Below are positions 4,913-34,530 of a DNA stretch of 46,621 nucleotides, piece after piece (positions within the stretch are counted from its first letter, which is position 1; the number at the start of each line of letters is the position of its first letter). The translations under genes were made by a program, and so were the position numbers. The DNA is from an uncultured Rickettsiales bacterium. Its GTDB lineage: Bacteria; Pseudomonadota; Alphaproteobacteria; Rickettsiales; SXRF01. Location of the stretch: assembly GCA_964519595.1 (NCBI GenBank), contig CAZFJN010000009.1, forward strand, positions 1 to 46,621, in the 5' to 3' direction. The notes below the pieces were generated by a model. It was not told where the DNA came from and ran no database searches. It saw only the letters and a program-made list of their open reading frames with translations.

Positions 4913-4920
4913 TTATGCAA

Positions 4921-4994: not shown

Positions 4995-5040
4995 GTTGAG
5001 CAGTAATTTAAACAACATTTCCTTATATATGGTTATTTCT

Positions 5041-8910: not shown

Positions 8911-8921
8911 AATTATTTTGT

Positions 8922-8975
8922 AAAATATTACTGCTGTGAAAAATATTGCTGCCTTGAAAAATATTGCTGCTTGTA
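8922..8975. repeat. Three tandem 18-bp units (aaaatattactgctgtga / aaaatattgctgccttga / aaaatattgctgcttgta)
   Basis: Counted directly in the 91-nt spacer upstream of murC. A partial fourth copy, 'tatattactgctgcc', lies at 8998-9012. Confidence 0.9.
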
Positions 8976-9001
8976 GATTATTGTACATTATTTCCTGTAT
9001 A

Positions 9002-9988
9002 TTACTGCTGCCGAACAATTGCAAATCCTTCCAGCACCTTGGCAAGTGCTGCCAGTTCGGATTGTATATCACGCGTTCCCTTGCTAAACCGGCGAAGATG
9101 AAAGCCAAAAGGATTATCTTGCCACAAAAATTCTTCCCATTGCAGCGCATTTACATCCGGCAAGTCTTTTGCAGCAAACCCTTTTTCTGAAAAATAGCCT
9201 GATTTCTTTGGTATATAGCTGAAACGATCAGGCATAAATGTTTCCAGCCATCGTCCTGCTGCATATTGTAGATGTCCATGGTTTAAAATATATCGCGGCA
9301 TGATCGGCTGCAATAAACCTACCTTGTGTTTGAAATAATTATAATAACGGCGATAGATACGATATCCTGTATCACTAGCATTGCCGATATTCAGGCGATT
9401 TATCGTAAGCAAAGCTACAAAACGCAGCAGCGCACGTAATGAACGTTGCGTTGCTTTAAGCGAGGAAGTGGATAAAATAGGCTCTTTCAATTCAGGCGTG
9501 AAATCCAGCGTTGTAATGTCGATAGCGTGCGTATCAATAAACATGCAATGCACAGATGGAAAATAACGGTATTTATTGTACCATTGCGGATGCCATGGCG
9601 CGCCAAAAAATGCCCAGCCATGTTTAACCATTTCATGCGGAATATCTCTTAACCAGTCCGGAGCAACAATGTAAAAATCCGGATCAATAATCAACAAATA
9701 ACGCGTGGTAATTTTCTGACTACTTAGAAAGTGGTTGAGCGCGCCTGAATGCTGATAAGATGCTCGATAATTAGCTGGCAGAGTTGTATCTTGCGGCACA
9801 CCGTCAATTACAATCGCGTCCAGCGCACCACAAATGCCGTTGGCGCTCGGCGAGGTTTTACCATTATCTAAAACAAAAACTGGCGGTAACTGTCCGCCAT
9901 TCATGCGCTGCATCAAAGCAATATTCGCGCGAATATATGGCTCATCTCCCGGGCCAGCGACAGTAACAATAGTTATATCTTCAGACAT
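9002..9988 (-). CDS. Putative glycosyltransferase (GT-A-like, DxD 'IIDPDF'); family not identified
   Basis: 328-aa ORF. It starts with an N-terminal beta-strand 'ITIVTVAG', has an acidic DPD motif after a hydrophobic strand, and sits in a glycan-locus context. I recognised no stronger signature. Confidence 0.4.
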
Positions 9989-10015
9989 AAGAAGAAACTC
10001 AAACAGCGCAATGTT

Positions 10016-11104
10016 TTATGATTGTAAAGACAAACCTTGCAAAATCTCTTTGCGCCTGCCAACCAGATGACGATATTCTGTCGACGAAGGCTTGCCGAGA
10101 GCATGTTTGGTTTCCAGTAACTTCTTCACTATAATCCGCAGCAACTCTTTTGGATTACGTGGTAGTTCTGTGATCTTTTGTGTTGCACGTAGAACAGTAT
10201 ATGGCACGCGTAACATCTCAATCCTCTGGAGCGTATAACCATGTCCAAGAATATTATCAACGCTGGAAATCTGTGTATTATGCGGTGATTTTGCGCGATT
10301 ATGACTATATATGTTCATACATCCCTGCTTCCAGAACCACTGCATATAACCGTAAACCTGCGCGTCAGTCATTTCCTGAAACGATACCATATTAATTCCT
10401 AAATCAAGTTTTGGCAGCTCATAAGCTTGCGTGACAAAATGCGGCAGAAAAACAAAATCATAAGACGTAATATTCTGCAAGGCATTCGCTACGGTATCAT
10501 GTGAATAGATATATATCTTTGCCTCAGGAAAAAGCGTAGAAAGATACGTAGCTGAGAATATCAACGTAGGAGGAAGGTCAATAATCACATAAGTCATATT
10601 TGCTACAATTTTCTTTATCTGGTAAGCAAATCCTCCCCAGCCTGCGCCAATTTCCGCCACCACAGGCCGCGAAGGAGCTTGCTTCAACTCTGTTATCAGC
10701 CCGGCTTTATCCATCGCAATGAGTGATTCATAGAATTTCAGCGTATCCAGATTAACCAGCTCGCCGTCAATGTTATATCCAAAACCGCCAAGTTGCGGCG
10801 ATTCAGGAATCCATAATCCTGTTTTATCAATGTTTTTTAAGGCAGCAAGCTTATCAACAAACGGCTGTTTTTTGTGGTCATGATGATGACGATACACATA
10901 GCTGTGCAAACCGGTAATGTGATAGCAATGCTCGCGCAGTTTATTTATAAGTCGCGGCGAAGCTTCAAAAAGATAGTCAAATCCATCAAGCTCTTCCTGC
11001 CAGTAATCACTCGGCGCAAATATTCCGGCCATACCCTGCGCCATCATATTACACACAGCATCACGGCTACGACAGTAATTAAGGTACGCTAAAGAATTTT
11101 CCAT
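10016..11104 (-). CDS. SAM-dependent methyltransferase, probable sugar O-methyltransferase (paralog of the C-terminal half of 15606-18125)
   Basis: SAM motif 'VVAEIGAGWGGFAY'. His/Cys-rich block 'REHCYHITGLHSYVYRHHHDHK'. It aligns collinearly by eye with residues about 540-839 of the 839-aa protein. Confidence 0.6.
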   Translation of the reverse strand: MENSLAYLNYCRSRDAVCNMMAQGMAGIFAPSDYWQEELDGFDYLFEASPRLINKLREHCYHITGLHSYVYRHHHDHKKQPFVDKLAALKNIDKTGLWIPESPQLGGFGYNIDGELVNLDTLKFYESLIAMDKAGLITELKQAPSRPVVAEIGAGWGGFAYQIKKIVANMTYVIIDLPPTLIFSATYLSTLFPEAKIYIYSHDTVANALQNITSYDFVFLPHFVTQAYELPKLDLGINMVSFQEMTDAQVYGYMQWFWKQGCMNIYSHNRAKSPHNTQISSVDNILGHGYTLQRIEMLRVPYTVLRATQKITELPRNPKELLRIIVKKLLETKHALGKPSSTEYRHLVGRRKEILQGLSLQS

Positions 11105-11123
11105 GACACTTTATCTTTTTAAA

Positions 11124-12026
11124 TTATGCACAATTTTTGAAGCATAATTCCTGCAATCCCTGCTCCAGAACATCGGCGGCGACAAATCCAACTTCCCGCT
11201 TTAATCTTTCTACATCGGCAACCAGAATCGGCGGTTCATTCACAGAAGATTGCAGTGCGCCATATCGTACCTCGCCCTTGCCGATAATTGCACGAATAGT
11301 TTCTACTACATGTGCAAGTTTCACAGCCTCGCCGCTGGCTATATTTAATGTTCCATCAACATTTGACTGAAGCAACTGTGCAAAGGCGCGTCCGCAATCA
11401 CGAGCTGACATCAGATCACGTATTTGCTGACAATGTGAAACTTGTGCAAGATTTCCAGCATTAAGTGCGCGAATCACAGACGGAACAAGCCGTCCTTGTG
11501 ATTCACCTTCACCATAAAGCAGAAAAATGCGCCCCCAGGCGAAGGAAACGCCAGCATCATGACAATAAGACTGCGCGATACGGCGCAACGCATCTTTCGC
11601 CGTGCCGTAAAGAAACAGCGAGCCAAGTGGTGTTTGTTCATTGCATATACCAGAGCCAAGTTTCTGCCAATCATACTCGGCGCAACTGCCAGATACAACC
11701 AACCGCCTACCGCCAGCCTCGGCGAATGCGCGAATCAGCTTCAGGCTGGCAGCTACCCAGAATAGATTTTCCGGTGAACGCCAGAATTTTCCATGTTCAG
11801 TTATCCAGGCTAGATGCAATAACGCATCAGGTTTTATTTCTTGCATTAGCTGGCAAATATCGCCAGTGAGAATATCGCATTGATGCCAGAATACATTCGC
11901 AGGAAGAATGTCCGGTTTTTCAGCTTGTCGTCCCAGCGCATGAACCTCCATGCCATCAGCAAGCAACTCAGCCACTGCATGACGGCCAATAAATCCATGT
12001 CCTCCGGTTAACAGAACCTTTTTCAT
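11124..12026 (-). CDS. NAD(P)-dependent sugar epimerase/4-ketoreductase (extended SDR)
   Basis: Motifs 'VLLTGGHGFIGRH' and a YxxxK 'YGTAKDA'. It has a 4-nt overlap with the upstream cupin epimerase gene. Confidence 0.75.
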   Translation of the reverse strand: MKKVLLTGGHGFIGRHAVAELLADGMEVHALGRQAEKPDILPANVFWHQCDILTGDICQLMQEIKPDALLHLAWITEHGKFWRSPENLFWVAASLKLIRAFAEAGGRRLVVSGSCAEYDWQKLGSGICNEQTPLGSLFLYGTAKDALRRIAQSYCHDAGVSFAWGRIFLLYGEGESQGRLVPSVIRALNAGNLAQVSHCQQIRDLMSARDCGRAFAQLLQSNVDGTLNIASGEAVKLAHVVETIRAIIGKGEVRYGALQSSVNEPPILVADVERLKREVGFVAADVLEQGLQELCFKNCA

Positions 12027-12553
12027 GAAACAAAATCCGGATAGTTGCCGTCGCGGTCGGAAATGACTTTAGGCTGTGCAGGCCAAGCAATAGAGAAGGC
12101 CGGATCATTCCAGCGCACACCACAGGCAGCAGAAGAAACATAATTTCCGCACATCAGATAAAGTAATTCTGATCCAGCTGTTAAGGTAATAAAGCCATGC
12201 GCGATACCAGGAGCGATGTACAGACTATCGCGGTTCTCATCGTCAAGCCTTATTCCGTACCATTGTTTGAATGTTGAAGATTGCGGCCGCAGATCAACTG
12301 CCACATCATAGATTGCGCCTTTCATACAGCGTACTATTTTTGATTCCGGCGCAGCTTGCGATTGATAGTGCATACCGCGCAATGTGCCAGCCTCTGTATT
12401 ATAGGAAATGTTTATTTGCGTAAGATTTTCGTTAATCCCGTGCGCTGAAAATTCCTCTTTGCAATAGCTACGTGCGAAAAATCCTCGTGCATCTTCATGT
12501 TTATCAAGGCTGATTCGTAAAACCCCGTCAATGGTTGTAGCATGGAATTTCAT
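12023..12553 (-). CDS. NDP-4-keto-6-deoxyhexose 3,5-epimerase (RmlC-like cupin)
   Basis: Motifs 'DARGFF', 'GTLRGMHYQ', 'KIVRCMKGAIYDVAVDLR' and 'IAPGIAHGF'. Confidence 0.85.
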   Translation of the reverse strand: MKFHATTIDGVLRISLDKHEDARGFFARSYCKEEFSAHGINENLTQINISYNTEAGTLRGMHYQSQAAPESKIVRCMKGAIYDVAVDLRPQSSTFKQWYGIRLDDENRDSLYIAPGIAHGFITLTAGSELLYLMCGNYVSSAACGVRWNDPAFSIAWPAQPKVISDRDGNYPDFVS

Positions 12554-12560
12554 ATTAATT

Positions 12561-13850
12561 TCATATTATCTGCGCCGAGGGTTGTGGCGTAACAAAACGC
12601 CCTCCCCATTCCTTTATATAAGCATGTTCGGCAGTGATCTCACGCGTTAAGTTCCATGGCAAAATCAACACATAATCAGGTTTATTCTCACGCATATGTT
12701 CAGGCGCGACAATAGGAATATGCGAACCGGGCAGTAAATGCCCCTGTTTATGCGGATTTTTATCAACAGTATAAACAAGGTCATCTGTTGTAAGGCTGCA
12801 ATAGTTCAGCAAGGTATTGCCTTTTGCCGCCGCGCCATAGGCCACCACCGTTTTTCCTTCAGTTTTTGCGTTGGCAAGAAATGCTCGCAGACTTTCACGC
12901 ACCTGCCGAACCTTCTCATCGAAGGCCGTATAAGTTGCTTCATTCATAAGTCCGGCATCATGCTCCATCTGCAATATACGCTGCACTTCAGGGCTTATAT
13001 CGCGCGGAGTTCCATCGTTTAAATGTGCATATACGCGCAAAGATCCACCATGTGAAGATAATTCTTCAACATCAAATACCACAAGACCATGCGCTTTGAA
13101 CATGCGCTGTACAACTGCAAGACAGAGATAGGAAAAATGCTCATGATAGATAGTGTCAAATTGGCCATGCATAAGCAGCTGCAGTAGATGATGAAATTCC
13201 ACCGTCAATACTCCGTAAGGCTTAAGCAGCAGACGAATGCCTCCGATAAAATCATTCAGATCAGGCACATGCGCCAAAACATTGTTAGCAGCAATCAGGT
13301 CGGCTTTAAATCCTTGCTCGACAAGTTCCTTGGCGCTTTCAATTCCCATAAAGCGATTGACGGTGCGAATGCCTTTTGCATTGGCATGTTCGGCAATGTT
13401 GGTTGCTGGTTCTATACCAAGAACAGGAATAGATTCTGCCACAAAATGCTGCAGTAGATAGCCATCATTGCTGGCAACCTCAATAACCAGCGAATCACGG
13501 CTTATCACAAAACGCTCAATCATACGCACGGCATAGCGGCGCGCATGTTCAACCCAGCTGGATGAGAATGATGAAAAATACGCATAGTGCGAGAAAATTT
13601 CCGTTGGCGCGACGATACGATCCACCTGACAGAGATGGCATTTTGCACATACGCGGGCAACCAGCGGATAGGCTTTTTCCCGCGCAATATCCTGTGATCC
13701 GCGTAGGTAGTTGTTAGCAAGCGGATGATTGCCAAGATTAGTCATTAACCATGATTCGCTGCTTGCACAGAAATTGCAGCTAAACGGCAATAATTCTTCT
13801 TCGTATGTGGTGTCTATTTCTTTTATATTAGGCAACATGTTTGTTCTCAA
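12561..13850 (-). CDS. NDP-hexose C-methyltransferase (TylCIII-like, N-terminal Cys4 zinc ribbon)
   Basis: Cys pairs 'CNFCAS...CAKCHLCQ', a SAM-binding region 'VIEVASNDGYLL', and a long C-terminal domain, as in sugar 3-C-methyltransferases. Confidence 0.72.
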   Translation of the reverse strand: MRTNMLPNIKEIDTTYEEELLPFSCNFCASSESWLMTNLGNHPLANNYLRGSQDIAREKAYPLVARVCAKCHLCQVDRIVAPTEIFSHYAYFSSFSSSWVEHARRYAVRMIERFVISRDSLVIEVASNDGYLLQHFVAESIPVLGIEPATNIAEHANAKGIRTVNRFMGIESAKELVEQGFKADLIAANNVLAHVPDLNDFIGGIRLLLKPYGVLTVEFHHLLQLLMHGQFDTIYHEHFSYLCLAVVQRMFKAHGLVVFDVEELSSHGGSLRVYAHLNDGTPRDISPEVQRILQMEHDAGLMNEATYTAFDEKVRQVRESLRAFLANAKTEGKTVVAYGAAAKGNTLLNYCSLTTDDLVYTVDKNPHKQGHLLPGSHIPIVAPEHMRENKPDYVLILPWNLTREITAEHAYIKEWGGRFVTPQPSAQII

Positions 13851-14649
13851 TATCCCCGCATGATTTCTTTTCGTCCCAAATGCGCCATTTGGCCTCTTTC
13901 GATTCCCACAACGCGTTTAGCGTATTGGCATCTTTTAGCGTATCCATGCATGACCAGAATCCCTCATGCTCAAAGGCCATTAGCTCTTTGCGCGCTACCA
14001 GCGTCTCTAGTGGCTCATTTTCCCATACCGTTTCATCGCCATCGATAAGTTCAATCACTTTGCGGTTAAGCACGAAATAACCACCATTAATAAAACCACC
14101 ATCGCCGCGTGGTTTCTCGACAAACCGTTGTACTTGTGCGCCGTCCATTTCAATAGCGCCGAAACGTCCGGAAGGACGAACTGCCAGAATTGTAGCGAGT
14201 TTGCCATGCGCGTGGTGAAATTTAATTTCATCTTGAATATTCACGTTGCACACGCCGTCACCATAGGTAAGGAGAAATGTGTCATCTTTACCAGGCTCCA
14301 GATAAGGGGCAACGCGCTTGAGGCGACCACCGGTCATAGTATGTTCACCGGTTTCTACCAGCGTAATGTTCCAGTCTTCACAAGCATTATTAAAAAACTT
14401 TACCTTGTTGTTTTTAAGATCCAGCGACATATCAGAGTTATGCATGAAATAATGGTAGAAATATTCCTTTATAACGTAACCTTTGTAGCCAAGGCAAATG
14501 ATGAAGTCATTTATTCCGTATGCGGAATAAAATTTCATAATGTGCCACAAAATCGGGCGTCCACCTACCATCACCATTGGTTTAGGAATGCGTGCGCTTT
14601 CTTCCATGATGCGGGTGCCAAGCCCCCCTGCAAATATAACGGCTTTCAC
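13828..14649 (-). CDS. rfbF: Glucose-1-phosphate cytidylyltransferase
   Basis: 'MKAVIFAGGLGTRIMEESARIPKPMVMVGGRPILWHIMKFYSAYGINDFIICLGYKGY' is nearly canonical RfbF/DdhA. Its 3' end overlaps the next gene by 23 nt. Confidence 0.92.
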   Translation of the reverse strand: MKAVIFAGGLGTRIMEESARIPKPMVMVGGRPILWHIMKFYSAYGINDFIICLGYKGYVIKEYFYHYFMHNSDMSLDLKNNKVKFFNNACEDWNITLVETGEHTMTGGRLKRVAPYLEPGKDDTFLLTYGDGVCNVNIQDEIKFHHAHGKLATILAVRPSGRFGAIEMDGAQVQRFVEKPRGDGGFINGGYFVLNRKVIELIDGDETVWENEPLETLVARKELMAFEHEGFWSCMDTLKDANTLNALWESKEAKWRIWDEKKSCGDIENKHVA

Positions 14650-14667
14650 TGCTGGTTCTCCGTAGTA

Positions 14668-15591
14668 CTAGGATGTTTCTTTACGCAGCCAATTGCGAAC
14701 TTGATCATAACAATAGCGAAGTTCATGTGTTATGTTTTTCCTACCACGCGCATGATAGCTTTGGCAAGCATAATAAGTTAGCATAATCCTTGCTGGTCCT
14801 TGAGAAATAGCTGCTTTGATGCCGTCTTTCAGCAAACATAGCATGTGATAATAAACAGGCAGAAGATGCAGTCGTGGCGGGCTCTTTCCAGGTTGATAGA
14901 TAACACGATACTGCCGCCGCAGAACATTTTGGTAAACGTTTGGATCAGAGTGAGGAATATGCTCATATAAACGATACCACAATGGTTGATTGACAGAGAC
15001 GAAATCTCCCTGAAATGCCATGCGTGCCAGAAAAAGACTGTCCCAGCGTATAACAATTTCTATTGGACATTTTCGCATTGCCTCGGTGCGAAACAATCCA
15101 TAAATCAACGTGCCAGCACCAGACATTTTACACAGATATTTTACTCGCTCCTTTGTGGTCATTTCGCGTGTATCAAGGGAAAGCTGGATGCTATTAAATA
15201 TTAAAGAATCCGGAAGCAAGCAAAGGCTGAAAGGATATGCAAGGACAATTCTTTCGTCAGAAGAAATAACATCCAGCAAATCTGCCAACCAGTTAGGCTG
15301 GTAATAGTCATGCGCGCCTACCCAGGCAAAAAACTCGCCGCGAGCTTCTGCAAAGAGACGTTGAAAGTTCCATACCGCACCGCCATTATGTTCAGCAGGA
15401 AGGATACGAATACGGCTATCCATTTTCGCCAGGCGCTGCATAATAGCCATGGTGTTATCGGTTGAGCAATTATCGCCGAGCAGCAGCTCAAAATCAGTAT
15501 ATGTCTGGCCTAAAATCGTCAGCACAGTATGTTCAAGGCGCTTTTCTTCATTATAAGCAGGAAGAGCAAGCGTTACGGAAGGAGAGCGCAT
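14668..15591 (-). CDS. Family-2 glycosyltransferase
   Basis: 'VTLALPAYNEEKRLEHTVLTILGQTYTDFELLLGDNCSTDNT' is the classic GT2 N-terminus. Confidence 0.85.
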   Translation of the reverse strand: MRSPSVTLALPAYNEEKRLEHTVLTILGQTYTDFELLLGDNCSTDNTMAIMQRLAKMDSRIRILPAEHNGGAVWNFQRLFAEARGEFFAWVGAHDYYQPNWLADLLDVISSDERIVLAYPFSLCLLPDSLIFNSIQLSLDTREMTTKERVKYLCKMSGAGTLIYGLFRTEAMRKCPIEIVIRWDSLFLARMAFQGDFVSVNQPLWYRLYEHIPHSDPNVYQNVLRRQYRVIYQPGKSPPRLHLLPVYYHMLCLLKDGIKAAISQGPARIMLTYYACQSYHARGRKNITHELRYCYDQVRNWLRKETS

Positions 15592-15605
15592 TCAATGACC
15601 ACCCC

Positions 15606-18125: not shown

Positions 18126-18204
18126 AGAACACTCAAATAAGTTAAACTGTAAATAATATCAAAATACTGCCCCCTCCTAACCTTTAGAAGAACTGTCTAG
18201 CAAA

Positions 18205-19221: not shown

Positions 19222-19224
19222 ATA

Positions 19225-20337: not shown

Positions 20338-20428
20338 GGTTATGCCTCACTGATACATTAAAAATGTCCGTGTAACACGGTTTATAAAGTAGTGCAAGTC
20401 AATTCAAAATCTATAAATTCAAAATTTA

Positions 20429-21490: not shown

Positions 21491-21600
21491 AATAAAAGGC
21501 TGCGTAATGGCGAATAATGGTTTTGTCAAGCTACTAGAGAATATTAGCAATAAAATCGATAGGACACTGCCTGTGCATTTCGAAGGATGATAAATCTATA

Positions 21601-21762
21601 AGAGCCTGTAGCGATTTATCTTTTGAGTGGATTTTTGAGGAGTTTTTTGTCCTTATTTTACCAAAAATTTAGTGCGTAGTGGTTCTACGCACTAAATTTT
21701 TGGTAAAATAAGGGCGTAAAAGCACCAAAAAGACGCCAAAATGATAATTCGCTACAGGCTCT
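21601..21762. repeat. 162-bp imperfect palindrome (MITE-like) with a perfect 29-bp inner stem (21651-21679 / 21685-21713, loop tggtt) and 14-bp perfect outer arms (agagcctgtagcga)
   Basis: I reverse-complemented the arms by hand. The middle section is only partly complementary. Confidence 0.9.
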
Positions 21763-21783
21763 AAGACTATATAAACTACAATT

Positions 21784-23049
21784 TTATTTTTCTAGCCATT
21801 TAGTATTGTAAATAGTTTGCGCTAGAAACTGATTTCCAAGAGGTGACATATGCGCCCAATCACAATAATAACCAAGCCCTGCCCATATAGAATCATTTTT
21901 TGAGCGAAACTCATAAACCACATCACGACCATCAATAGTAAGAAAACCAGACTTTTTTGCAATGTTAACTACTGCATTGAATGGTTCTACAATCTGAGTG
22001 TATTGATCAGGAAGCGGACGAACAATATCAGGGTTAGAGATGTAAACCGACGGATGCGCTACATATACACTATGTTTGATTCGATTATCATGTAAAAGTT
22101 TTTTTATTGGCAACACGGCATTTTCCGGTTCTAGCAATACGCCAGAACGCATTCGACTGTTTAAATCATTCTCGTAATGTACATACACCACCCCAACCAC
22201 CTTACCTTTATAACGCTCCAGAAGCATTTTCAGACGCAGGTAATTGTCATCAGCCTGTGAACTGGGAATTCCTGAATTGATTACGCGGTATTCAGGATAT
22301 AGTTTTTGTAGGAAGGAAGGCAGAGTACTCTCATCCCCCATGCGTGCGCCATACACCATGCTATCGCCGATCACTAAAATAATGCGATCACTTTTAACCT
22401 CTGGCAATGTTAACCGATAACCTTCTTCCGTAATAGTAATTGGAACCATTCGTGTCACATAGTGATCAATAAAATATTGCGCTTCCTTGCTTGGTTTCCC
22501 TTCTGGACGTGGCCCGTAGAGATGAGGCTGTACCCACACACCATCAAAAAATCCCTGAATTGTACCATTCATACGACGTGCAGGCATCAGACCTGCTTTT
22601 TCATCCATATTGCCACGCTGTTCAATTATTTCAGCCTTTAAATTTAATCGTTTTTTTTGTATGGCTATTTCATCATCAATGATTTTATTGACATCACCAC
22701 CAACAGTATAACCTGCCTCAGACAGAATTGGTATCCATGCCTTTAAATGCTCCCAGTTCTGAATGTAGCGCTGCGGTAGAATCTGCCATGGATAAGTTTC
22801 GGGACGATAGAGACTCGCATCCGGCATTGATCCTGCCGATTGCACTAATAAAGCATGATTATTCTCCGATGGAGTGTCAGCAATTCCTGCGGCATGATCG
22901 AATGAGAACCAACGCAAGGCAGTCAATAGCTGCGCGCTGATACTTTCATGTTTTTCAGTTCCTTTGTATAAAGAATAACCTCCCTCTAACGTCAACACAG
23001 TAATAGCAACTATAAGCACGCCAATCAAAAAATCAGTAACCTTAGACAT
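21784..23049 (-). CDS. Membrane-anchored SGNH/GDSL-type hydrolase or acyl-modifying enzyme
   Basis: N-terminal TM 'FLIGVLIVAITVL', block I 'ILVIGDSMVYG' and block V-like 'CDWAHMSPLGN'. I placed the start at ATG 23049; the track uses a TTG at 23079. Confidence 0.55.
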   Translation of the reverse strand: MSKVTDFLIGVLIVAITVLTLEGGYSLYKGTEKHESISAQLLTALRWFSFDHAAGIADTPSENNHALLVQSAGSMPDASLYRPETYPWQILPQRYIQNWEHLKAWIPILSEAGYTVGGDVNKIIDDEIAIQKKRLNLKAEIIEQRGNMDEKAGLMPARRMNGTIQGFFDGVWVQPHLYGPRPEGKPSKEAQYFIDHYVTRMVPITITEEGYRLTLPEVKSDRIILVIGDSMVYGARMGDESTLPSFLQKLYPEYRVINSGIPSSQADDNYLRLKMLLERYKGKVVGVVYVHYENDLNSRMRSGVLLEPENAVLPIKKLLHDNRIKHSVYVAHPSVYISNPDIVRPLPDQYTQIVEPFNAVVNIAKKSGFLTIDGRDVVYEFRSKNDSIWAGLGYYCDWAHMSPLGNQFLAQTIYNTKWLEK

Positions 23050-23186
23050 ATGATTCGATCTTGTGTTGGAGAATGACAAAGATTATGAACAAAAGTCTAT
23101 CTAATACACAATAATATCTATTGCAATTGGTTTGGTGATACGTCTTATATGCTGTATTAACACTTAGTATCGTGCAAGGGGTTGCT

Positions 23187-23621
23187 ATGAAAAAAAACAT
23201 TGGCTTACACGAGCATTTTCAGCGCGAAGAAAAGCTAGACACCGCATCCGATCGCGGTTTCGGATTAGTAATGGCAGCGGTATTTTTGTTATTGGCAGCG
23301 TTTGCAAGTTATCACAACCATGTTACAAAAGCACTTATATTGCTCGTGGTGGCTGTTGTATTTTTATTTACAGCAATTATACATCCAGAGAGATTGTCGA
23401 TGCTCAATCTTTTATGGACGCGCTTTGGCCTGCTTCTGCACAAAATAACCAATCCTATTTTAATGTTGCTTATTTATCTGACAGCCATTGTGCCAATGGG
23501 ATTGTTGCTTAAATTATTTGGCAAAGATCCGCTGAACCGTAAATTCCAGCCTTACGCTGAAAGCTATTGGATTACGCGCCAGCCTGGGCCATTGCCGGAG
23601 ACAATGCGTAATCAGTTTTAA
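23187..23621 (+). CDS. SxtJ-family small membrane protein
   Basis: About 144 aa with three hydrophobic helices and a tail 'LFGKDPLNRKF...SYWITRQPGP...MRNQF'. This matches my recollection of SxtJ-like proteins found next to carbamoyltransferases. Confidence 0.6.
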   Translation: MKKNIGLHEHFQREEKLDTASDRGFGLVMAAVFLLLAAFASYHNHVTKALILLVVAVVFLFTAIIHPERLSMLNLLWTRFGLLLHKITNPILMLLIYLTAIVPMGLLLKLFGKDPLNRKFQPYAESYWITRQPGPLPETMRNQF

Positions 23622-23651
23622 AGAAAATCTTGAAGAACCTTAGAGGGTCTT

Positions 23652-23804
23652 ATGGTTGATTTTATTCGTGAACTATGGCGTTTCATGCGCGCGCGCAAAA
23701 AATTCTGGCTGCTACCAGTAATGGTCATTATGATCATGTTAGGCGGTCTGCTAGTGCTTGTGAAAGGCTCCACGGTTGCACCGTTTATCTACGCTCTGTT
23801 TTAG
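23652..23804 (+). CDS. SxtK-like / DUF5989-type 50-aa membrane peptide (below the ORF-track cutoff)
   Basis: Hand translation: MVDFIRELWRFMRARKKFWLLPVMVIMIMLGGLLVLVKGSTVAPFIYALF. An RBS-like gaggg lies 6 nt upstream. The stop is 6 nt before the carbamoyltransferase ATG. Confidence 0.6.
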   Translation: MVDFIRELWRFMRARKKFWLLPVMVIMIMLGGLLVLVKGSTVAPFIYALF

Positions 23805-23810
23805 TTTCAC

Positions 23811-25643
23811 ATGCGTATCCTAGGAATTTCCGCTTTTTACCACGATAGCGCCGCCGCTTTGCTTGCGGATGGCAAGATTGTTGCCGCCGCGCAGGAAGAG
23901 CGTTTTACGCGGAAAAAACATGATGCACGTTTTCCGTCCAGTGCAATTAGCTATTGTTTAAAGGAAGCAGGAATAACTCTTGCTGATATTGATTATGTCG
24001 CATTTCATGAAAAACCATTTATAAAATTTGAGCGGTTGGTTGAAACCTATCTGGCATGTATGCCGTATGGATTTACCTCTTTCCGCGCGGCAATACCATT
24101 GTGGCTAAAGGAAAAATTATTTCAGAAAAGCTTGCTGCGTGACGAGTTGCGCCGCTTTGATCCGGAGTTTGATCACACACGTAAATTGTTATTTGCCGAG
24201 CATCACCAAAGTCATGCGGCAAGCGCATTTTTCCCTTCTCCATTTGAAGAAGCAGCTGTGCTTACCATGGATGGCGTAGGCGAATGGGCAACTACCAGCG
24301 CTGGAATGGGAAGTGGAAATAAACTAACGCTGCATAAGGAAATCCATTTTCCGCATTCACTCGGCCTGCTTTATTCTGCTTTCACCTACTATCTTGGTTT
24401 TAAAGTCAATTCAGGTGAATATAAGGTTATGGGACTTGCTCCTTATGGCGAGGCAAAATACGCAGGTAAGATTCTCGATCACCTAATAGATCTCAAAGAA
24501 GATGGTAGCTTTCGGTTAGATCAACGTTATTTCAACTACGCCACTGGACTAACCATGACATCGCCAAGATTTGATAAACTGTTTGGCGGATTGCCACGCT
24601 CTGCAGAATCGCCACTGACTCAGCGCGATATGGATCTCGCCGCATCTATTCAGTTAGTCACGGAAGAAATTGTTTTACGCCTTTCCCGGTCATTAGCAAA
24701 GGAAACTGGCGCAAAGAATCTATGCTTAGCCGGTGGCGTTGCGCTTAATTGCGTGGCCAACGGAAAAATATTGCGCGACGGAGCTTTTGAGCGCATTTGG
24801 ATTCAACCGGCGGCAGGTGATGCAGGATGTGCTCTAGGAGCGGCATTAGCTGTGCATTACGGTTTTCTAAACCAACCACGCACGCCACAACCACATGATG
24901 CTATGCACGGCAGCTATCTGGGGCCTGAGTTCACGCAGCCTGAAATTGAAGCGGCACTCAACGAGTGTGGAGCTAATTTTGAAACACTCGATGATGCAAA
25001 ATTGCTGGATACAGTTGTGGATTATTTATCCGGCGGCAATGCCGTCGGCTGGTTTCAGGGAAGGATGGAATTTGGCCCACGCGCACTGGGAAATCGCTCT
25101 ATTCTTGGCGATCCACGCTCATCTGTTATGCAGAAAACTCTCAATTTAAAAGTCAAATTCCGTGAAAGTTTTAGGCCATTTGCACCATCAGTACTAGCAG
25201 AACATGTAGCAGAATGGTTTGAACTGAACGAAGCAAGTCCCTACATGCTGCTGGTTGCTCCGGTTAAATCATCACGCTGTATGCCAATTAGCGAAGAAAA
25301 TAAAAAACTATTCGGCATAGACAAGTTGAACCTTACACGCTCTGAAATTCCTGCCGTAACGCATGTTGATTATTCCGCTCGCGTTCAAACCGTGCATGAG
25401 CAAACAAATCCACGCTATTATCAATTGCTTAAAGCATTCGAGCGGCGCACAGGTTGCCCGATGCTGGTCAATACTAGCTTCAATGTACGCGGAGAGCCTA
25501 TTGTTGCAACCCCGCAAGACGCTTTCCGCTGCTTCATGGGAAGCGGTATCGAGGTGCTGGTAATAGGCAATTGCCTGCTACGCAAAGAGCTTCAGAACAC
25601 CGCGCTAGCAAATGACTATACCAGCGCATTTGAGTTAGATTAG
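23811..25643 (+). CDS. Carbamoyltransferase, NodU/CmcH family
   Basis: Motifs 'MRILGISAFYHDSAAALLADGKIVAAAQEERFTRKKHD', 'AGGVALNC' and 'VNTSFNVRGEPIV'. Confidence 0.92.
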   Translation: MRILGISAFYHDSAAALLADGKIVAAAQEERFTRKKHDARFPSSAISYCLKEAGITLADIDYVAFHEKPFIKFERLVETYLACMPYGFTSFRAAIPLWLKEKLFQKSLLRDELRRFDPEFDHTRKLLFAEHHQSHAASAFFPSPFEEAAVLTMDGVGEWATTSAGMGSGNKLTLHKEIHFPHSLGLLYSAFTYYLGFKVNSGEYKVMGLAPYGEAKYAGKILDHLIDLKEDGSFRLDQRYFNYATGLTMTSPRFDKLFGGLPRSAESPLTQRDMDLAASIQLVTEEIVLRLSRSLAKETGAKNLCLAGGVALNCVANGKILRDGAFERIWIQPAAGDAGCALGAALAVHYGFLNQPRTPQPHDAMHGSYLGPEFTQPEIEAALNECGANFETLDDAKLLDTVVDYLSGGNAVGWFQGRMEFGPRALGNRSILGDPRSSVMQKTLNLKVKFRESFRPFAPSVLAEHVAEWFELNEASPYMLLVAPVKSSRCMPISEENKKLFGIDKLNLTRSEIPAVTHVDYSARVQTVHEQTNPRYYQLLKAFERRTGCPMLVNTSFNVRGEPIVATPQDAFRCFMGSGIEVLVIGNCLLRKELQNTALANDYTSAFELD

Positions 25644-25661
25644 CCACCCATAGAGCATATT

Positions 25662-26309
25662 CTACCTTTGATAAATAAACCATTCATTGAAAGCCTCTCC
25701 ACCTGAACCTTCAAGTAATGGACAAGGCTCTTTTTCTACTGAAATCAATTTAAAGCCAGGAAGGTTATGATCTGTGTGTATCTTCGGTGCAGGAGTGGTG
25801 ACATAATATCCTTCAGGCTCAATAATTTTTGCAAGTTTCTCTATATAAACTTCATATTTTTCTTCAGTCATATGAGCAGAAGAAAAACAGTCGACTACCC
25901 AGTTAAAGGTCACGCCAAAAATATCCAATGCCAAAGAAGAATCATGTGCAACACGTACTTTCTTTTGACTCAATCCATGCAATGGCAACTCGTACCCCAT
26001 TAAAGCCTCGATGCTAGGAAGATACGCTTCTATGCCAAAATAATGTCCTTTTTCAAGATATGCCGCCAGCCATATAGCCAGACGCCCTGATCCACAGCCA
26101 AAATCCAGTACGCGTGCGGTTTTTGGAAGTCCTTTCTTCAGCAAATAATCGGCCTGATAGCGGCCCAATATCCACGGTCTTCCATAGGCTTGGTGATGTT
26201 CTTCTCTCAACAGCGCCGTATCAATTGAAAGCTCATTCCATTCGGTGCTGTCATACAAAACCGTATTTGTAGTTTGTGGTTTCATTCTCCAACCTGAATA
26301 AATGCTCAT
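25662..26309 (-). CDS. Class I SAM-dependent methyltransferase
   Basis: Motif I 'RVLDFGCGSGRLAIWLA'. It converges on the carbamoyltransferase gene with an 18-nt gap. Confidence 0.7.
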   Translation of the reverse strand: MSIYSGWRMKPQTTNTVLYDSTEWNELSIDTALLREEHHQAYGRPWILGRYQADYLLKKGLPKTARVLDFGCGSGRLAIWLAAYLEKGHYFGIEAYLPSIEALMGYELPLHGLSQKKVRVAHDSSLALDIFGVTFNWVVDCFSSAHMTEEKYEVYIEKLAKIIEPEGYYVTTPAPKIHTDHNLPGFKLISVEKEPCPLLEGSGGEAFNEWFIYQR

Positions 26310-26331
26310 AATTTATAACCTTGTTGGAAAA

Positions 26332-27357
26332 TTAAGATTGATAAGAATGAGATGTGATTTTCTGAGTAATGTTATACATGGAGTAGCATTTGTCCATAAT
26401 GAACTTTCGAACATCAGGTAATACGTGTTCATGGCGATCACTGGCCGGCACAATAACGCCTGCCGGAGCTTGTATAAAGCTGGAATTCGCTTCTATCGGA
26501 ATGTTATTAAATGTTGGAGTATTTTTTCGTGATGTCCTGAGATTTGCAAATTTATATATTTTCTTAAGAAGAAGAAGTGGCGATTGTAACATCTCCTCAA
26601 ATGAGACCAGCAACACCTTGCCAGGACGCTTCTTAAATTGGTACATTGCAGATCCGGTTGATTCCATCCATAAATCAGTCGCCGCTACCACATCACCATA
26701 ACGATCCGGCATATACCTGCTTGCAGATGCGTACCATGAAACAGGATCGCGTATAATGCTGATGAGAAGGCCGTCCTGATAGTCGCGAAAAAACCCCTTT
26801 ATCTCAGCCGCATTGGCTGCCACACGCGCAGCAAACGCCACCCAATAGCGTATTTTATTAGGATCACGGTAGAGTGATTGATAATCCAACCATGCATTAA
26901 AATATGAGGTAATGTACGCATCAAGAATGGAACGCTGGGAATCTTTCCCATATAAAATCAAACATTCTGAGAAAATTTCCTGCTGTAACGATGTGCAGAA
27001 AATGAAGGGCAGCTTGCTTTGCTGCGCCACACCATCCTTGCTATAGCCTTGTATAGAATGTGTACGTGCAGGATGCTCGCAGAGCAAATCAAATAACTCC
27101 TGCGGCGATGATTTAATATCCAATTTTGGCCAGTAATATTTATTTGGCCTGCCAATATGTAGCTCTGAATGGTGAACGTGCAGTTGCGAATGTCCGTCCA
27201 ACAGCTGACTTAATAGCGTTCCGCCACTGCGCTGAACCTGTGAAATTAGTAATAACGGCTGACGAATGGGAACAATAAATGATCTGCGCTGTCCGCGAAT
27301 AATCTGGTTATTATCAAAAACATCTTCAATATTAGGAGGAGGCATCGGAATAAACAT
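26332..27357 (-). CDS. Sulfotransferase-family protein
   Basis: A 5'-PSB-like loop 'VQRSGGTLLSQLL' near the N-terminus and a later 'RDPVSWYAS' (3'-PB-like). It lies immediately downstream of wzt. Confidence 0.62.
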   Translation of the reverse strand: MFIPMPPPNIEDVFDNNQIIRGQRRSFIVPIRQPLLLISQVQRSGGTLLSQLLDGHSQLHVHHSELHIGRPNKYYWPKLDIKSSPQELFDLLCEHPARTHSIQGYSKDGVAQQSKLPFIFCTSLQQEIFSECLILYGKDSQRSILDAYITSYFNAWLDYQSLYRDPNKIRYWVAFAARVAANAAEIKGFFRDYQDGLLISIIRDPVSWYASASRYMPDRYGDVVAATDLWMESTGSAMYQFKKRPGKVLLVSFEEMLQSPLLLLKKIYKFANLRTSRKNTPTFNNIPIEANSSFIQAPAGVIVPASDRHEHVLPDVRKFIMDKCYSMYNITQKITSHSYQS

Positions 27358-27361
27358 GCGA

Positions 27362-28717
27362 TTATCTTTCTATGCTCCAATTATAATCCTCGACATACGC
27401 ACCATAATAACTAGGAAGGATATGCCCTGTTCCATAATAGTCACCTTCGGTAACGAGCAATTGTAACGCCCCTGGAAACTTGTCTGCTATTTGTCTATTA
27501 AGGTGCAGGCCAATCTGCATGGCATAAATTCCTGGATATAATCGTATTTTATCTACAGTACAAACCAACGCTCCTTCGCGCGGAAGATCGGTTAAATCAG
27601 CGTTGATCGCATAGCTTGGTAACGAGAAAACAATCTCGCGCTTGTCATTTACGAATGAAATACTGATCATTGCATGAACAATTTTTTCAGAAAAATTTTC
27701 ATCGAATACATAAGGAATTTTAATATGAATGCGCTGTCCTGTGCTGACGCGATCAATTGGAACACCTTGCTCATTTAGTATTACAACACAACCAATTTTT
27801 GCATTACCATTCCCCTTCCGAGTGCTTGGATCTTGAATAAGAATAGCTTCGCCGGTGATATTATCAACCTCCACCTCATCTCCTACAGCCTCAGATGGAT
27901 TTTCTGCCAGATAGCGTTGTAGTACAGCCTCACAAGAACCATCGGCAATAAGCCTGCCTTCCTTCAGTAAAATTGCACGGTCACACAATGCCGTCACTCG
28001 CGCAGGGCTATGTGACACAAATAGCAGTGTCATCCCCTCGTCACACAGGCTTAACATAGCATCCATGCATTTTTGTCTGAAAGGCGCATCGCCGACAGCA
28101 AGAACTTCGTCAACCACCAGCACATCCGGTGCGAGGTTAAGGGCTACTGCCATTCCTAGCCTTGCGCGCATACCTTTGGAATAGCGTTTAAGCGGCGTGT
28201 CCATAAAATCAGCGATTTCGGCGAATTGTACGATTGCGTCGTAATGCTTGCGTATTTCGGCTGGGCTGACGCCGAGAATACCGCCATATAAAAATACATT
28301 TTCTTTGCCGCTTAGCTCAGGATTAAACCCTGCGCCAACGCCCATTAACGGCACAATGCGAACATTGGTCGAAACCTTGCCTTCGGTTGGCACCATGATG
28401 CCAACCAGAATTTTAAGCAGCGTACTTTTTCCGGCACCATTACGACCAATAATCGCTACGCGATCACCACGACGCAGCTCAAAATTAATATCACGTAGCG
28501 CCCATAAATAACGCTTGCCGTTTTTATCCTCAAAACGCGGCTGATTACTGGATGAGCTTTTTCGGCGCATCCATTCCAGCGGATTACACACCATCTGTTT
28601 TATCGAGCGCAGCGTAGAAGCAAGACTCACAAACTGACCAAGCTGGAAACGCTTGCTGACATGTTCGGCGCGGATAATAACGAATGGATCTACGGTTTTT
28701 ATGTTCATAGAGGTCAT
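27362..28717 (-). CDS. wzt: Polysaccharide ABC exporter ATP-binding protein Wzt with extended C-terminal (glycan-binding type) domain
   Basis: Walker A 'GRNGAGKST', signature 'YSKGMRARL' and Walker B 'VLVVDE'. At 451 aa it has about 180 residues beyond the NBD. Confidence 0.9.
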   Translation of the reverse strand: MTSMNIKTVDPFVIIRAEHVSKRFQLGQFVSLASTLRSIKQMVCNPLEWMRRKSSSSNQPRFEDKNGKRYLWALRDINFELRRGDRVAIIGRNGAGKSTLLKILVGIMVPTEGKVSTNVRIVPLMGVGAGFNPELSGKENVFLYGGILGVSPAEIRKHYDAIVQFAEIADFMDTPLKRYSKGMRARLGMAVALNLAPDVLVVDEVLAVGDAPFRQKCMDAMLSLCDEGMTLLFVSHSPARVTALCDRAILLKEGRLIADGSCEAVLQRYLAENPSEAVGDEVEVDNITGEAILIQDPSTRKGNGNAKIGCVVILNEQGVPIDRVSTGQRIHIKIPYVFDENFSEKIVHAMISISFVNDKREIVFSLPSYAINADLTDLPREGALVCTVDKIRLYPGIYAMQIGLHLNRQIADKFPGALQLLVTEGDYYGTGHILPSYYGAYVEDYNWSIER

Positions 28718-28723
28718 AGACTA

Positions 28724-29548
28724 TTACACCACATCTGCAAACGAACGCTCGAGAGCGTTAAAAAATATAAGTCCGCCAATCAGCATCACACATGTTACAC
28801 CAGCGGCATAGGCAGAATAAATTGGATCAGGCGCAGGAACTCCAAGAATACACCAGCGAAATCCTTCAACGATTGCTGCCATCGGATTAATCTTGATAAT
28901 CCAAGCGAATGACTCAGGAATATTTTGAGCGCCATAGCCAACCGGCGTAAGCAACATCAACAGCTGCATTAAATATGTCGTCATAAACTTCACATCATGC
29001 AGCCACACTGCCGCTGCCGCCAACCAAATCCCTAAAGACAGCCCAACCAGCAGCACCGCAAGAATCATCAGCGGCAACCATACTATATTTTCTGACACCC
29101 CTACCCCAAAAATCAGCATCAATACAGCTAAAATACAAGCTGCGATAACAAAGTCAAACAATGCTACCATTACTGAACTTAAAGGAAATAACAGGCGTGG
29201 ACAGTAGATTTTCTGCACCACACTCTTATTAGTGGTTATGCTTGTCGCGCAGCCAACAACCACATTGGCAAACAAATCCCAGCCAATTAGCGCGGCAAAT
29301 ACATATACCGGATAAGCTATCCCCTCACCTGACAATTGCGCCATTGTGCCAAACAGGAAGGTGAACACTACCATCATCATTAATGGCCTGATAACTGCCC
29401 ATGCGCCGCCCAATGCTGATTGCTTGTAGCGCACTTTAATCTCACGCACCATCAGCATCACAGCCAAATGACGCCTGACCCACAATTCCTTTGGATCAAT
29501 TGATCTCCAGGCAGATGTTGTTGTATTAGCGCTCAGAAAAACCTCCAT
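28724..29548 (-). CDS. wzm: Polysaccharide ABC exporter permease Wzm (ABC-2 type)
   Basis: 274 aa with six hydrophobic segments and 'REIKVRYKQSALGGAWAVIRPL', typical of ABC-2 permeases. It is paired with wzt. Confidence 0.85.
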   Translation of the reverse strand: MEVFLSANTTTSAWRSIDPKELWVRRHLAVMLMVREIKVRYKQSALGGAWAVIRPLMMMVVFTFLFGTMAQLSGEGIAYPVYVFAALIGWDLFANVVVGCATSITTNKSVVQKIYCPRLLFPLSSVMVALFDFVIAACILAVLMLIFGVGVSENIVWLPLMILAVLLVGLSLGIWLAAAAVWLHDVKFMTTYLMQLLMLLTPVGYGAQNIPESFAWIIKINPMAAIVEGFRWCILGVPAPDPIYSAYAAGVTCVMLIGGLIFFNALERSFADVV

Positions 29549-30868: not shown

Positions 30869-30889
30869 TAAACCGCCGCATGTTAAATC

Positions 30890-30941
30890 TGGTTTATTGC
30901 ATGGTTTTTGTAACATGGTTTTGTAGCGTGGTTTTTGCGAC
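30890..30941. repeat. Four tandem roughly 13-bp units (tggtttattgca / tggtttttgtaaca / tggttttgtagcg / tggtttttgcgac)
   Basis: Read directly downstream of the orphan ORF. Confidence 0.75.
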
Positions 30942-30972
30942 GAACTTCTCCTTTTTCTCGCAAACATATTTC

Positions 30973-31001
30973 TTGACGAGGTCATGATAAAACCATATAG
31001 A
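30973..31001 (+). promoter_or_regulatory. Sigma70-like promoter candidate: -35 TTGACG, 17-nt spacer, -10 TATAGA
   Basis: Spacing counted by hand. It lies about 50 nt upstream of the synthase ATG at 31052. Confidence 0.35.
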
Positions 31002-31051
31002 TCTTAACCGATTGAAGTATCTGCAACAAGCTTCTGAATAAGGTTAAAAAC

Positions 31052-32146: not shown

Positions 32147-32155
32147 GGAATTTCC

Positions 32156-34434: not shown

Positions 34435-34450
34435 TCCAGATAGATATTAT

Positions 34451-34520: not shown

Positions 34521-34530
34521 GGAAGAAATC

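Follow-up and report, generated by a model that had tools for sequence, protein, structure and literature searches.

A stretch of 46,621 nucleotides from an uncultured freshwater Rickettsiales bacterium (contig CAZFJN010000009.1 of assembly GCA_964519595.1), referred to here as the window, carries between approximately 9.0 and 39.0 kb the genes for an ATP-binding cassette (ABC) exporter, a cytidine diphosphate (CDP)-sugar pathway, several glycosyltransferase-like proteins, a varied set of tailoring enzymes and a cassette predicted to make an ulosonic acid. We think it probable that these genes form one ABC transporter-dependent surface-glycan locus, whose product is most likely a lipopolysaccharide (LPS) O-polysaccharide. 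The kind of system is ordinary; the mix of its parts is unusual, and no characterised equivalent was found in the literature searched. A first-pass annotation had recognised a polysaccharide locus at 9002-29548, and all of its gene calls in that interval were recovered when six-frame open reading frames (ORFs) and profile scans (Pfam and NCBIfam) were applied to the whole window, the domain scans covering ORFs of at least 100 amino acids. Gene neighbourhoods of homologues were compared for the carbamoyltransferase, at 80 loci (L027-L106), and for the cassette that contains a transketolase-like enzyme, at the best 80 (L107-L186) of at least 587 related genome stretches. Operons were delimited by strand and spacing alone. 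Features lie on the minus strand unless stated otherwise.

Exporter and predicted chain termination

The gene series ends in a single exporter pair, as had been proposed: a Wzm ABC-2 permease (28724-29548; ABC2_membrane, 73.7 bits) and a Wzt ATPase (27362-28717; ABC_tran, 77.6 bits) with a C-terminal carbohydrate-binding domain (Wzt_C, 37.1 bits against a cut-off of 30.4). This pair, with its Wzt_C domain, bears out the assignment to the ABC transporter-dependent type. No Wzx flippase, Wzy polymerase or Wzz domain was found in any ORF of the window that was scanned, nor any domain of a phosphoglycosyltransferase or ligase, which agrees with the earlier gene inventory. The accompanying statement that no chain-length regulator is present holds for Wzz within the window, but it fails as a reading of the pathway, since Wzt bears a carbohydrate-binding domain. 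In the systems that have been characterised, domains of this kind accompany the termination of chains by a cap at the end, the models for cap-dependent export and termination being Escherichia coli O9a and Klebsiella O3, O4, O7 and O12 (PMC3482155, PMC11231755). A terminal cap, and not the missing Wzz, is therefore expected to set chain length here, and the locus offers several candidate capping enzymes: an FkbM-family protein with tetratricopeptide repeats (TPR), NanM-type methyltransferases, an oxygenase and a Capsule_synth-like transferase.

The C-terminal domain of Wzt, at about residues 285-451, is conserved only in L017, a locus with the same tailoring set, where it is 62% identical; it is undetectable in the related loci L025, L020 and L024, in which the ATPase domains are 46-65% identical to that of the window. 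This distribution fits a binding module tuned to an epitope that depends on tailoring.

CDP-sugar pathway and glycosyltransferase-like proteins

The CDP-hexose pathway of the first-pass annotation stands on equivalog scores. Glucose-1-phosphate cytidylyltransferase RfbF (13828-14649; TIGR02623, 398 bits against 300.25) and CDP-glucose 4,6-dehydratase RfbG (20429-21550; TIGR02622, 404.7 bits against 278.45), the true start of which is probably near residue 21, together make CDP-4-keto-6-deoxy-D-glucose. An RmlC-like 4-keto-6-deoxyhexose epimerase (12023-12553; dTDP_sugar_isom, 198.7 bits) likewise exceeds its model (TIGR01221, 163.9 bits against 155.75). Beside it lie a nucleotide-sugar C-methyltransferase of the TylC3/TcaB9/MtmC type (12561-13850), composed of a zinc-binding N-domain (Methyltransf_13), an S-adenosylmethionine (SAM) domain and a C-domain (Methyltransf_14, 209 bits), and an NAD-dependent short-chain dehydrogenase (SDR) that is a candidate 4-ketoreductase (11124-12026; Pfam Epimerase, 126.9 bits) and adjoins the epimerase and C-methyltransferase genes also in L017 and L025. 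The top solved relatives of the C-methyltransferase are D-mycarose 3-C-methyltransferase (4rv9, E 2.7e-87), the sugar 3-C-methyltransferase 5t64 and TcaB9, and methylation is thus probably at position 3. CDP-glucose would in this way be dehydrated, C-methylated, epimerised and reduced to a CDP-6-deoxy-C-methylhexose.

Three glycosyltransferase-like proteins had been listed, and each is upheld on different grounds. The protein encoded at 14668-15591 is a GT2 glycosyltransferase by profile (Glycos_transf_2, 93.4 bits). That at 9002-9988 (328 amino acids) has no Pfam or NCBIfam match of its own and is a candidate for a divergent GT-A (GT2-like) enzyme through its 88 homologues, 16 of the 38 aligned matching Glycos_transf_2 (best E 1.3e-9) with an invariant D102-x-D104; related domains are present in the glycan loci L020 and L023. 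The third, at 15606-18125, is a fusion of 839 amino acids in which about 470 N-terminal residues are modelled as a GT-B fold of unclassified family and the C-terminus is a NanM-type O-methyltransferase (TIGR04371, 85 bits, residues 637-771). The N-domain model has a predicted local distance difference test (pLDDT) score of 94, and its Foldseek matches are UDP-GlcNAc 2-epimerases, GT1 glycosyltransferases and TagF. Adjacency of the fusion and the GT2 gene is kept in L017 and L025, and in L002 the two domains occur as separate adjoining genes with wzt-like sequence on either side. Stand-alone relatives of the N-domain, about 470 amino acids long, are widespread, those with names being annotated as hypothetical.

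Because the best fold match of this domain is NeuC, we considered whether it might be a NeuC/PseG-like nucleotide-sugar hydrolase that feeds NeuB. This reading is disfavoured: the domain travels with GT2, oxygenase and wzt genes and not with the ulosonic-acid cassette, being absent from all 80 cassette loci. Single-sequence searches against solved structures returned nothing meaningful for the proteins at 9002, 18205, 26332 and 36474 or for the N-domain at 15606; profile searches against the same structures gave marginal matches only (HygX, E 0.046; the TagF N-terminus, E 0.0035), and none with the GT-B and Capsule_synth profiles.

Tailoring enzymes

The five methyltransferase domains of the first-pass annotation each exceed a curated cut-off. 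Besides the C-methyltransferase and the C-terminus of the fusion, they comprise a NanM-type putative sugar O-methyltransferase of 362 amino acids (10016-11104; TIGR04371, 93.8 bits against 44), which is a paralogue of the fusion C-terminus and has a 66% identical L017 orthologue; a TPR and FkbM-family methyltransferase (19225-20337; Methyltransf_21, 42.5 bits; TIGR01444, 59.4 bits; TPR_19); and a small class I SAM methyltransferase (25662-26309; Methyltransf_25, 33.5 bits against 27), with an L017 orthologue in the equivalent position. The sulfotransferase call also survives profile search (26332-27357; Sulfotransfer_3, 40.9 bits against 27). Its L017 orthologue is marked PF13469, and RSGGT at residue 43 and RDP at residue 203 are candidate motifs for binding 3'-phosphoadenosine 5'-phosphosulfate (PAPS), consistent with an enzyme of the PAPS type.

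Two calls were sustained by other evidence than Pfam scores. The candidate SGNH/GDSL-fold protein (21784-23079) falls below the Lipase_GDSL threshold (E 0.022) but has GDS at 238 and DWAH at 407, candidates for catalytic blocks I and V. Its L017 orthologue is 68% identical, and an L017 paralogue is weakly marked Lipase_GDSL_2. An N-terminal transmembrane helix (residues 14-32) makes it the sole membrane-anchored enzyme of the tailoring set, in which membrane helices are otherwise confined to the SxtJ and DUF5989 proteins; the NanM-type, FkbM and small methyltransferases, the sulfotransferase, the carbamoyltransferase and the PhyH-like oxygenase have none. The SGNH protein is probably a periplasmic esterase or acyl-handling enzyme.

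The putative PhyH-like Fe(II)/2-oxoglutarate (2OG) oxygenase (18205-19221) is likewise below the Pfam threshold (PhyH, 13.6 bits against 22, E 0.083), and the dioxygenase call therefore rests on structure. Its model has a pLDDT of 93. Foldseek gave 215 significant matches, and the 50 that were listed are without exception Fe(II)/2OG oxygenases or halogenases, with DhiD, AviO1, EctD, FtmOx1, EvdMO1 and HygX among the top ones. Across an alignment of 21 homologues the HxD...H iron triad is invariant (H203, D205 and H316), and R327, conserved in at least 90%, would be the 2OG-binding arginine. A word-index search that returned 26 clusters had made the family seem tiny, an impression overturned by an exhaustive search, in which 204 cluster representatives fell within E<=1e-30 and 1352 within E<=1e-3. 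Pfam has no model for this family. In the contexts examined its members lie mostly within surface-glycan loci: FkbM is adjacent in 5 of 8 distinct contexts (the adjacency is seen in L017, L020/L021, L022 and L024), and wzt lies nearby in 4 of the 8.

The carbamoyl cassette is the one part of the series on the plus strand. It consists of an SxtJ-like membrane protein with three transmembrane helices (23172-23621; PF19588, 20.5 bits, below the cut-off of 24.4, the L017 orthologue being marked PF19588), a DUF5989 (SxtK-like) membrane protein of 50 amino acids (23652-23804; PF19451, 84.3 bits) and an O-carbamoyltransferase of the NodU/CmcH/SxtI family (23811-25643), for which the earlier call is firmly supported (Carbam_trans_N, 365 bits; Carbam_trans_C, 250 bits). 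Among the 80 carbamoyltransferase loci, DUF5989 lies beside the enzyme in 71 and SxtJ homologues in 40, a sulfotransferase in none. The carbamoyltransferase is 60-73% identical between Alphaproteobacteria, Cyanobacteria, Acidobacteria and Chloroflexi. The triad is thus a stand-alone cassette with a striking conservation across phyla; it may carbamoylate this particular glycan, or it could be a neighbour without a common substrate.

Predicted ulosonic-acid cassette

Divergent from wzm is a plus-strand operon (29969-38222), followed by a convergent gene for a cytidine monophosphate (CMP)-transferase. Its enzymes are a NeuB-family ulosonic acid synthase (31052-32146; NeuB, 264.8 bits, and SAF), a short-chain dehydrogenase (32156-32944; adh_short_C2, 135 bits), an aldehyde dehydrogenase (ALDH; 32935-34434; Aldedh, 491 bits), a transketolase-like (TK) thiamine diphosphate enzyme with the transketolase N, pyrimidine-binding and C domains (34531-36486; NF004559, 408 bits against 488) and a candidate transferase of the Capsule_synth (KpsS/KpsC-like) family with a Cys4 motif (36474-38222; PF05159, 24.1 bits against 20). 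Homologues of this last protein match PF05159 in 19 of 23 cases, with C115, C122, C146 and C149 invariant. The convergent gene (38212-39024, minus strand) encodes a CMP-ulosonic acid synthetase, or cytidylyltransferase (CTP_transf_3, 65 bits; PseF, 131.5 bits against 205.7). An orphan ORF of 299 amino acids without family match heads the operon (29969-30868, plus strand); its membership is doubtful, as it has no homologue in the 80 cassette loci or in any fetched locus, and it lies in a stretch of lower G+C (0.39).

The six genes recur in the order neuB-SDR-ALDH-CMP-transferase-TK-Capsule_synth on one strand in the best 80 loci, where the CMP-transferase is found in 66, the SDR in 59, NeuB and the ALDH each in 54-55 and the Capsule_synth-like gene in 32. 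The window copy is rearranged, its CMP-transferase, canonically between the ALDH and TK genes, being inverted. The transketolase-like protein led to related stretches across many phyla, and cassette hosts include Proteobacteria, Chlorobium, Chloroflexi, Gemmatimonadetes, Acidobacteria, Cyanobacteria and others. A literature search of incomplete coverage found no paper that describes a cassette of NeuB with a transketolase. The characterised nonulosonic acid pathways (Neu5Ac, pseudaminic and legionaminic acid) were each rejected: the NeuB-like enzyme scores below equivalogs (TIGR03569, 297.8 bits against 399.65; PseI, 243.8 against 340.25), and the window has no UDP- or GDP-amino-sugar dehydratase, aminotransferase, acetyltransferase or hydrolase, so that the cassette belongs to none of the three. 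Among NCBIfam models the ALDH comes nearest to alpha-ketoglutaric semialdehyde dehydrogenase (429 bits against 770), a hint that the ulosonic acid may be omega-oxidised to an 'ulosaric' acid.

Related loci and the probable extent of the locus

The boundary at 29548 proves too tight, because the 29969-38222 operon and the CMP-transferase recur beside wzm/wzt or the same CDP-sugar genes in unrelated genomes; the functional unit probably reaches to 39024. In the lean relative L025, genes for NeuB (64% identical), SDR, RmlC-like epimerase, C-methyltransferase and RfbF lie together, and divergent from these CDP-sugar genes lie wzm, wzt, a methyltransferase, the GT-B/methyltransferase fusion, GT2 and RfbG, with no carbamoyl, sulfate, FkbM or oxygenase genes. 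The marine loci L020/L021 have FkbM, oxygenase, SDR, ALDH and TK in series on one strand and, on the opposite strand, a 745-amino-acid protein with a domain like that of 9002, wzt (with Wzt_C), wzm and the CMP-transferase. L108, L114, L139, L141 and L182 have the CDP-C-methyl-sugar genes immediately next to the cassette, and in L024 an ABC ATPase, FkbM and oxygenase stand beside Capsule_synth, WecA-like and Wzy_C-domain (O-antigen ligase/polymerase-type) genes.

The fullest counterpart is the metagenome contig L017 (56% G+C), in which the interval from wzt to the gene at 9002 (9002-28717) is gene-for-gene syntenic at 50-88% amino-acid identity. The carbamoyl cassette holds the equivalent position there, one additional GDSL paralogue is present, and the locus adjoins lptD, not murC. 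As for the earlier concern that a near-identical locus might already have been characterised, a fully syntenic one does exist, but L017 is itself uncharacterised. Seen across these relatives, the locus is a mosaic of a conserved core and add-on modules, namely sulfotransferase with methyltransferase, SxtJ/DUF5989/carbamoyltransferase, FkbM with oxygenase, SGNH, and methyltransferase with GT2-like protein.

Genomic setting

About 90 bp separate the locus from murC, which follows it directly on the same strand. The murC ORF (7468-9150, 560 amino acids) is over-extended by about 80 codons: relatives begin with MKQ(A/V)..., that is, at about 8910, so the apparent overlap with 9002-9988 comes from the way in which ORFs were called. 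For the flanking division genes, the nearest relatives are found in uncultured freshwater alphaproteobacterial metagenome-assembled genomes (MAGs) labelled Rickettsiales or Alphaproteobacteria (FtsA at most 82% identical), the closest of which has the standard order murD-ftsW-murG-murC-murB-ddl-ftsQ-ftsA. No related locus that includes murC has glycan genes upstream of it. With murG and ftsW missing from the window and the glycan locus abutting murC, the division and cell wall (dcw) cluster is broken between murG and murC, and since independent metagenome contigs from three runs span the junction, it is not an assembly chimera. The murC-murB genes may be co-transcribed with the glycan operon. 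Between ddl and murB, within the dcw cluster, the plus strand also carries genes for a PstS-like phosphate-binding protein and a phosphate-selective porin O/P (3827-6483), homologues of which were not seen in related loci L003-L015.

The G+C content of the locus (43.5%) equals that of its flanks (44.1%), and no tRNA or Rfam family was found in the window; neither composition nor an integration site accordingly points to a recent island. A scan of 28.7-39.5 kb for promoters and terminators was at chance (34 promoter-like sites against 26 ± 6 expected, 13 terminator-like against 12.5). The gap between the SGNH and rfbG genes holds a near-perfect palindrome of 162 bp (21601-21762), made of two nested 37-nt inverted repeats with a predicted RNA fold of -81.2 kcal/mol (z -12.7). 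It occurs once in the window and in none of the fetched loci, and L017 has its extra GDSL gene at the corresponding site; the palindrome could be a terminator or processing site, an element like a miniature inverted-repeat transposable element (MITE), or a deletion scar.

Beyond the locus lie a PAS-containing methyl-accepting chemotaxis protein and then two pilin-like genes (42345-43999) with N-terminal methylation motifs, the whole group spanning 39339-43999. These genes suggest a free-living, motile or piliated lifestyle, though the closest MAGs are labelled Rickettsiales.

Discussion

By its permease and ATPase pair, its Wzt_C domain and its lack of Wzx, Wzy and Wzz, the locus falls in the ABC transporter-dependent O-polysaccharide class. 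If an O-polysaccharide is its product, synthesis would begin at the cytoplasmic face on an undecaprenyl phosphate-linked primer, with initiation of the WecA type encoded elsewhere, and the GT2 enzyme, the GT-B/methyltransferase fusion and the GT2-like protein would build the lipid-linked chain. Methylation, carbamoylation, sulfation and an oxidative modification would follow in the cytoplasm, before export. The cassette would supply a CMP-activated 3-deoxy-ulosonic acid, a residue that the Capsule_synth-like enzyme would attach, plausibly as a cap or linker. Wzt would recognise the cap at the non-reducing terminus, and this cap would gate export through Wzm/Wzt and set chain length; the SGNH protein would probably act afterwards in the periplasm, and an unlinked WaaL would ligate the chain to lipid A-core. 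A bolder version of this scheme, which we put forward as speculative and rather unlikely, holds that a 3-deoxy-ulosonic acid not described before, CMP-activated and perhaps converted by omega-oxidation to an 'ulosaric' acid, serves as the export signal or terminus. It would be made by the six-gene cassette and processed at the terminus by the pair of FkbM methyltransferase and PhyH-like oxygenase, and would represent a new class of terminal cap, with a new cap chemistry, among glycans assembled in the ABC transporter-dependent way.

Several observations weigh against the assignment to a single O-polysaccharide locus. The 46.6-kb window contains no initiating phosphoglycosyltransferase, WaaL ligase, outer-membrane export or lipid A-core genes, which bears on the choice between an O-polysaccharide and another lipid-linked glycan. 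Genes for initiating transferases and ligases often sit elsewhere in the genome. No WbdD-like kinase, coiled-coil terminator or terminator family was recognised in the profile scans of the window, and the top fold matches of the GT-B domain at 15606 are nucleotide-sugar 2-epimerases, not glycosyltransferases. Genes for wzm/wzt lie within 10 kb of the carbamoyl cassette in about 2 of 80 loci (outside that distance in about 78) and within 10 kb of the ulosonic-acid cassette in about 4 of 80, and the presence of both cassettes here could be mere adjacency, without a common substrate. None of the RNA sequencing runs searched contains the region.

In a rival account, independent systems have simply been juxtaposed: the Wzm/Wzt and CDP-sugar core makes one glycan, and the carbamoyl cassette, the ulosonic-acid cassette or both act on other substrates, for example another envelope glycan or the pilins, whose genes lie 3 kb downstream. 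In its favour, each cassette is self-contained, strongly conserved between phyla and seldom found beside wzm/wzt; the identity of the carbamoyltransferase from Alphaproteobacteria to Cyanobacteria suggests a conserved substrate, and two pilin-like genes are at hand. This account is nevertheless unlikely in our judgement. Against it, the carbamoyl cassette keeps its place in the syntenic L017, NeuB directly adjoins the CDP-sugar genes in L025, wzm-wzt of L020 are directly followed on their strand by the CMP-transferase while the SDR-ALDH-TK genes follow FkbM-oxygenase, and five further genomes have CDP-C-methyl-sugar genes next to the cassette.

A capsule similar to group 2, in which a KpsS/KpsC-like enzyme would make a keto-acid linker on a lipid anchor for export by a KpsMT-like transporter, would account for the Capsule_synth protein and the CMP-ulosonic acid genes, and Wzm does weakly match KpsM. 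The KpsM score (54.9 bits) is, however, far under the cut-off of 300, the window has no genes of the KpsE/KpsD type (PCP-3/OPX), and the related context L024 has WecA-like and Wzy_C-domain genes. In model systems Wzt_C belongs to O-polysaccharide exporters (PMC3482155), and we regard a capsule of this kind as quite improbable. Less probable still is a secreted, decorated oligosaccharide or glycoside in place of a surface polymer, either a signal like the Nod factors, to which the first-pass annotation had likened the decorations, or a natural product of the noviose type. Carbamoyl, sulfate and methyl enzymes do occur together, NodU and NodI are weakly matched, an SxtI/J/K-like triad is present, and the sugar genes presumably parallel noviose biosynthesis. 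Yet NodU reaches 149.4 bits where the cut-off is 1000, and NodI 98.6 where it is 521; NodA, NodB and NodC are absent from the window, as are polyketide synthase, nonribosomal peptide synthetase and aglycone genes, and the Wzt carbohydrate-binding domain together with several glycosyltransferases points to a polymer. On the equivalog scores and the absent core genes the Nod-factor analogy was given up, and the sugar genes appear by analogy to resemble noviose- or virenose-type pathways instead.

An O-polysaccharide of the ABC transporter-dependent class thus remains the preferred product, and the systems it most invites comparison with are those of E. coli O9a and Klebsiella pneumoniae O3, O4, O7 and O12. 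Shared with these are Wzm/Wzt with a Wzt C-domain, the lack of Wzx, Wzy and Wzz, cytoplasmic glycosyltransferases and modifying enzymes, and methyltransferases beside wzt. In having a CMP-keto-acid pathway and a transferase dedicated to it, the locus is reminiscent of the Klebsiella serotypes terminated by 3-deoxy-D-manno-octulosonic acid (Kdo) (PMC11231755), but the pathway here is a NeuB-like/transketolase-like cassette and not KdsA/KdsB, and its transferase belongs to the Capsule_synth family. Unlike those systems, moreover, the window has no recognised WbdD-like kinase-methyltransferase or coiled-coil ruler, its sugar is CDP-derived and C-methylated, and carbamoyl, sulfate and oxygenase modules have been added.

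For the sugar itself, the noviose pathway of the aminocoumarin antibiotics comprises NovV/T/W/U/S with the O-methyltransferase NovP and the carbamoyltransferase NovN, which we take to correspond to the window in the nucleotidyltransferase, 4,6-dehydratase, RmlC-like epimerase, C-methyltransferase of the TylC3/NovU family, 4-ketoreductase, O-methylation and O-carbamoylation. It differs in that the window uses CDP and not dTDP, exports by Wzm/Wzt and has no aglycone, and the solved relatives of its C-methyltransferase are 3-C-methyltransferases. Vinelose of Azotobacter vinelandii is a CDP-linked, O-methylated and C-methylated 6-deoxyhexose. The O-polysaccharide of Coxiella burnetii contains virenose (6-deoxy-3-C-methyl-gulose), for which synthesis from GDP-mannose has been proposed (PMC3539893, PMC3204966); it shares with the predicted product a C-methylated 6-deoxyhexose as an LPS component, and the proposed enzyme classes are alike. 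No carbamoyl or sulfate enzymes, and no exporter context of this kind, are known to accompany virenose or vinelose.

Single modules have parallels in more distant systems. Saxitoxin clusters of cyanobacteria carry the SxtI/SxtJ/SxtK carbamoylation genes (PMC2679770), and they share with the window the carbamoyltransferase, SxtJ-like and DUF5989/SxtK genes and also a GDSL-type protein and a sulfotransferase. The core enzymes listed for those clusters, such as the amidinotransferase SxtG, have no counterpart in the domain calls of the window (PMC2679770). The triad is a widespread bacterial cassette, its SxtJ member scores 20.5 bits against 24.4, and SGNH does not lie beside the triad in the other 80 genomes; a saxitoxin reading was rejected, the carbamoylation triad alone counting as the shared part. 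The oxygenase shares its PhyH-like fold and HxD...H iron triad with AviO1, EvdMO1 and HygX of orthosomycin and hygromycin biosynthesis, which act on glycan sugar residues. Unlike those enzymes, it belongs to a family without a Pfam model; the matches listed are at 12-16% identity and TM-scores of 0.34-0.58, and its chemistry may be hydroxylation, demethylation or acetal formation.

O-antigen-type loci are hyperdiverse. The C-methyl, O-methyl, carbamoyl and sulfate chemistry foreseen by the first-pass annotation is what the gene content predicts, and our literature search, of incomplete coverage, agreed with it in finding no characterised glycan or locus with this combination of decorations. 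Should the prediction be true, a single exported bacterial glycan would bear a C-methyl-6-deoxyhexose together with O-methyl, carbamoyl and sulfate decorations, and in that search these four had no characterised precedent in combination. Of wider use are the uncharacterised modules that recur among these loci, namely the GT-B family, whose members are often fused to a sugar O-methyltransferase, the PhyH-like oxygenase family and the six-gene ulosonic-acid cassette, the characterisation of each of which would enlarge the enzyme inventory available for annotating surface-glycan loci in metagenomes.

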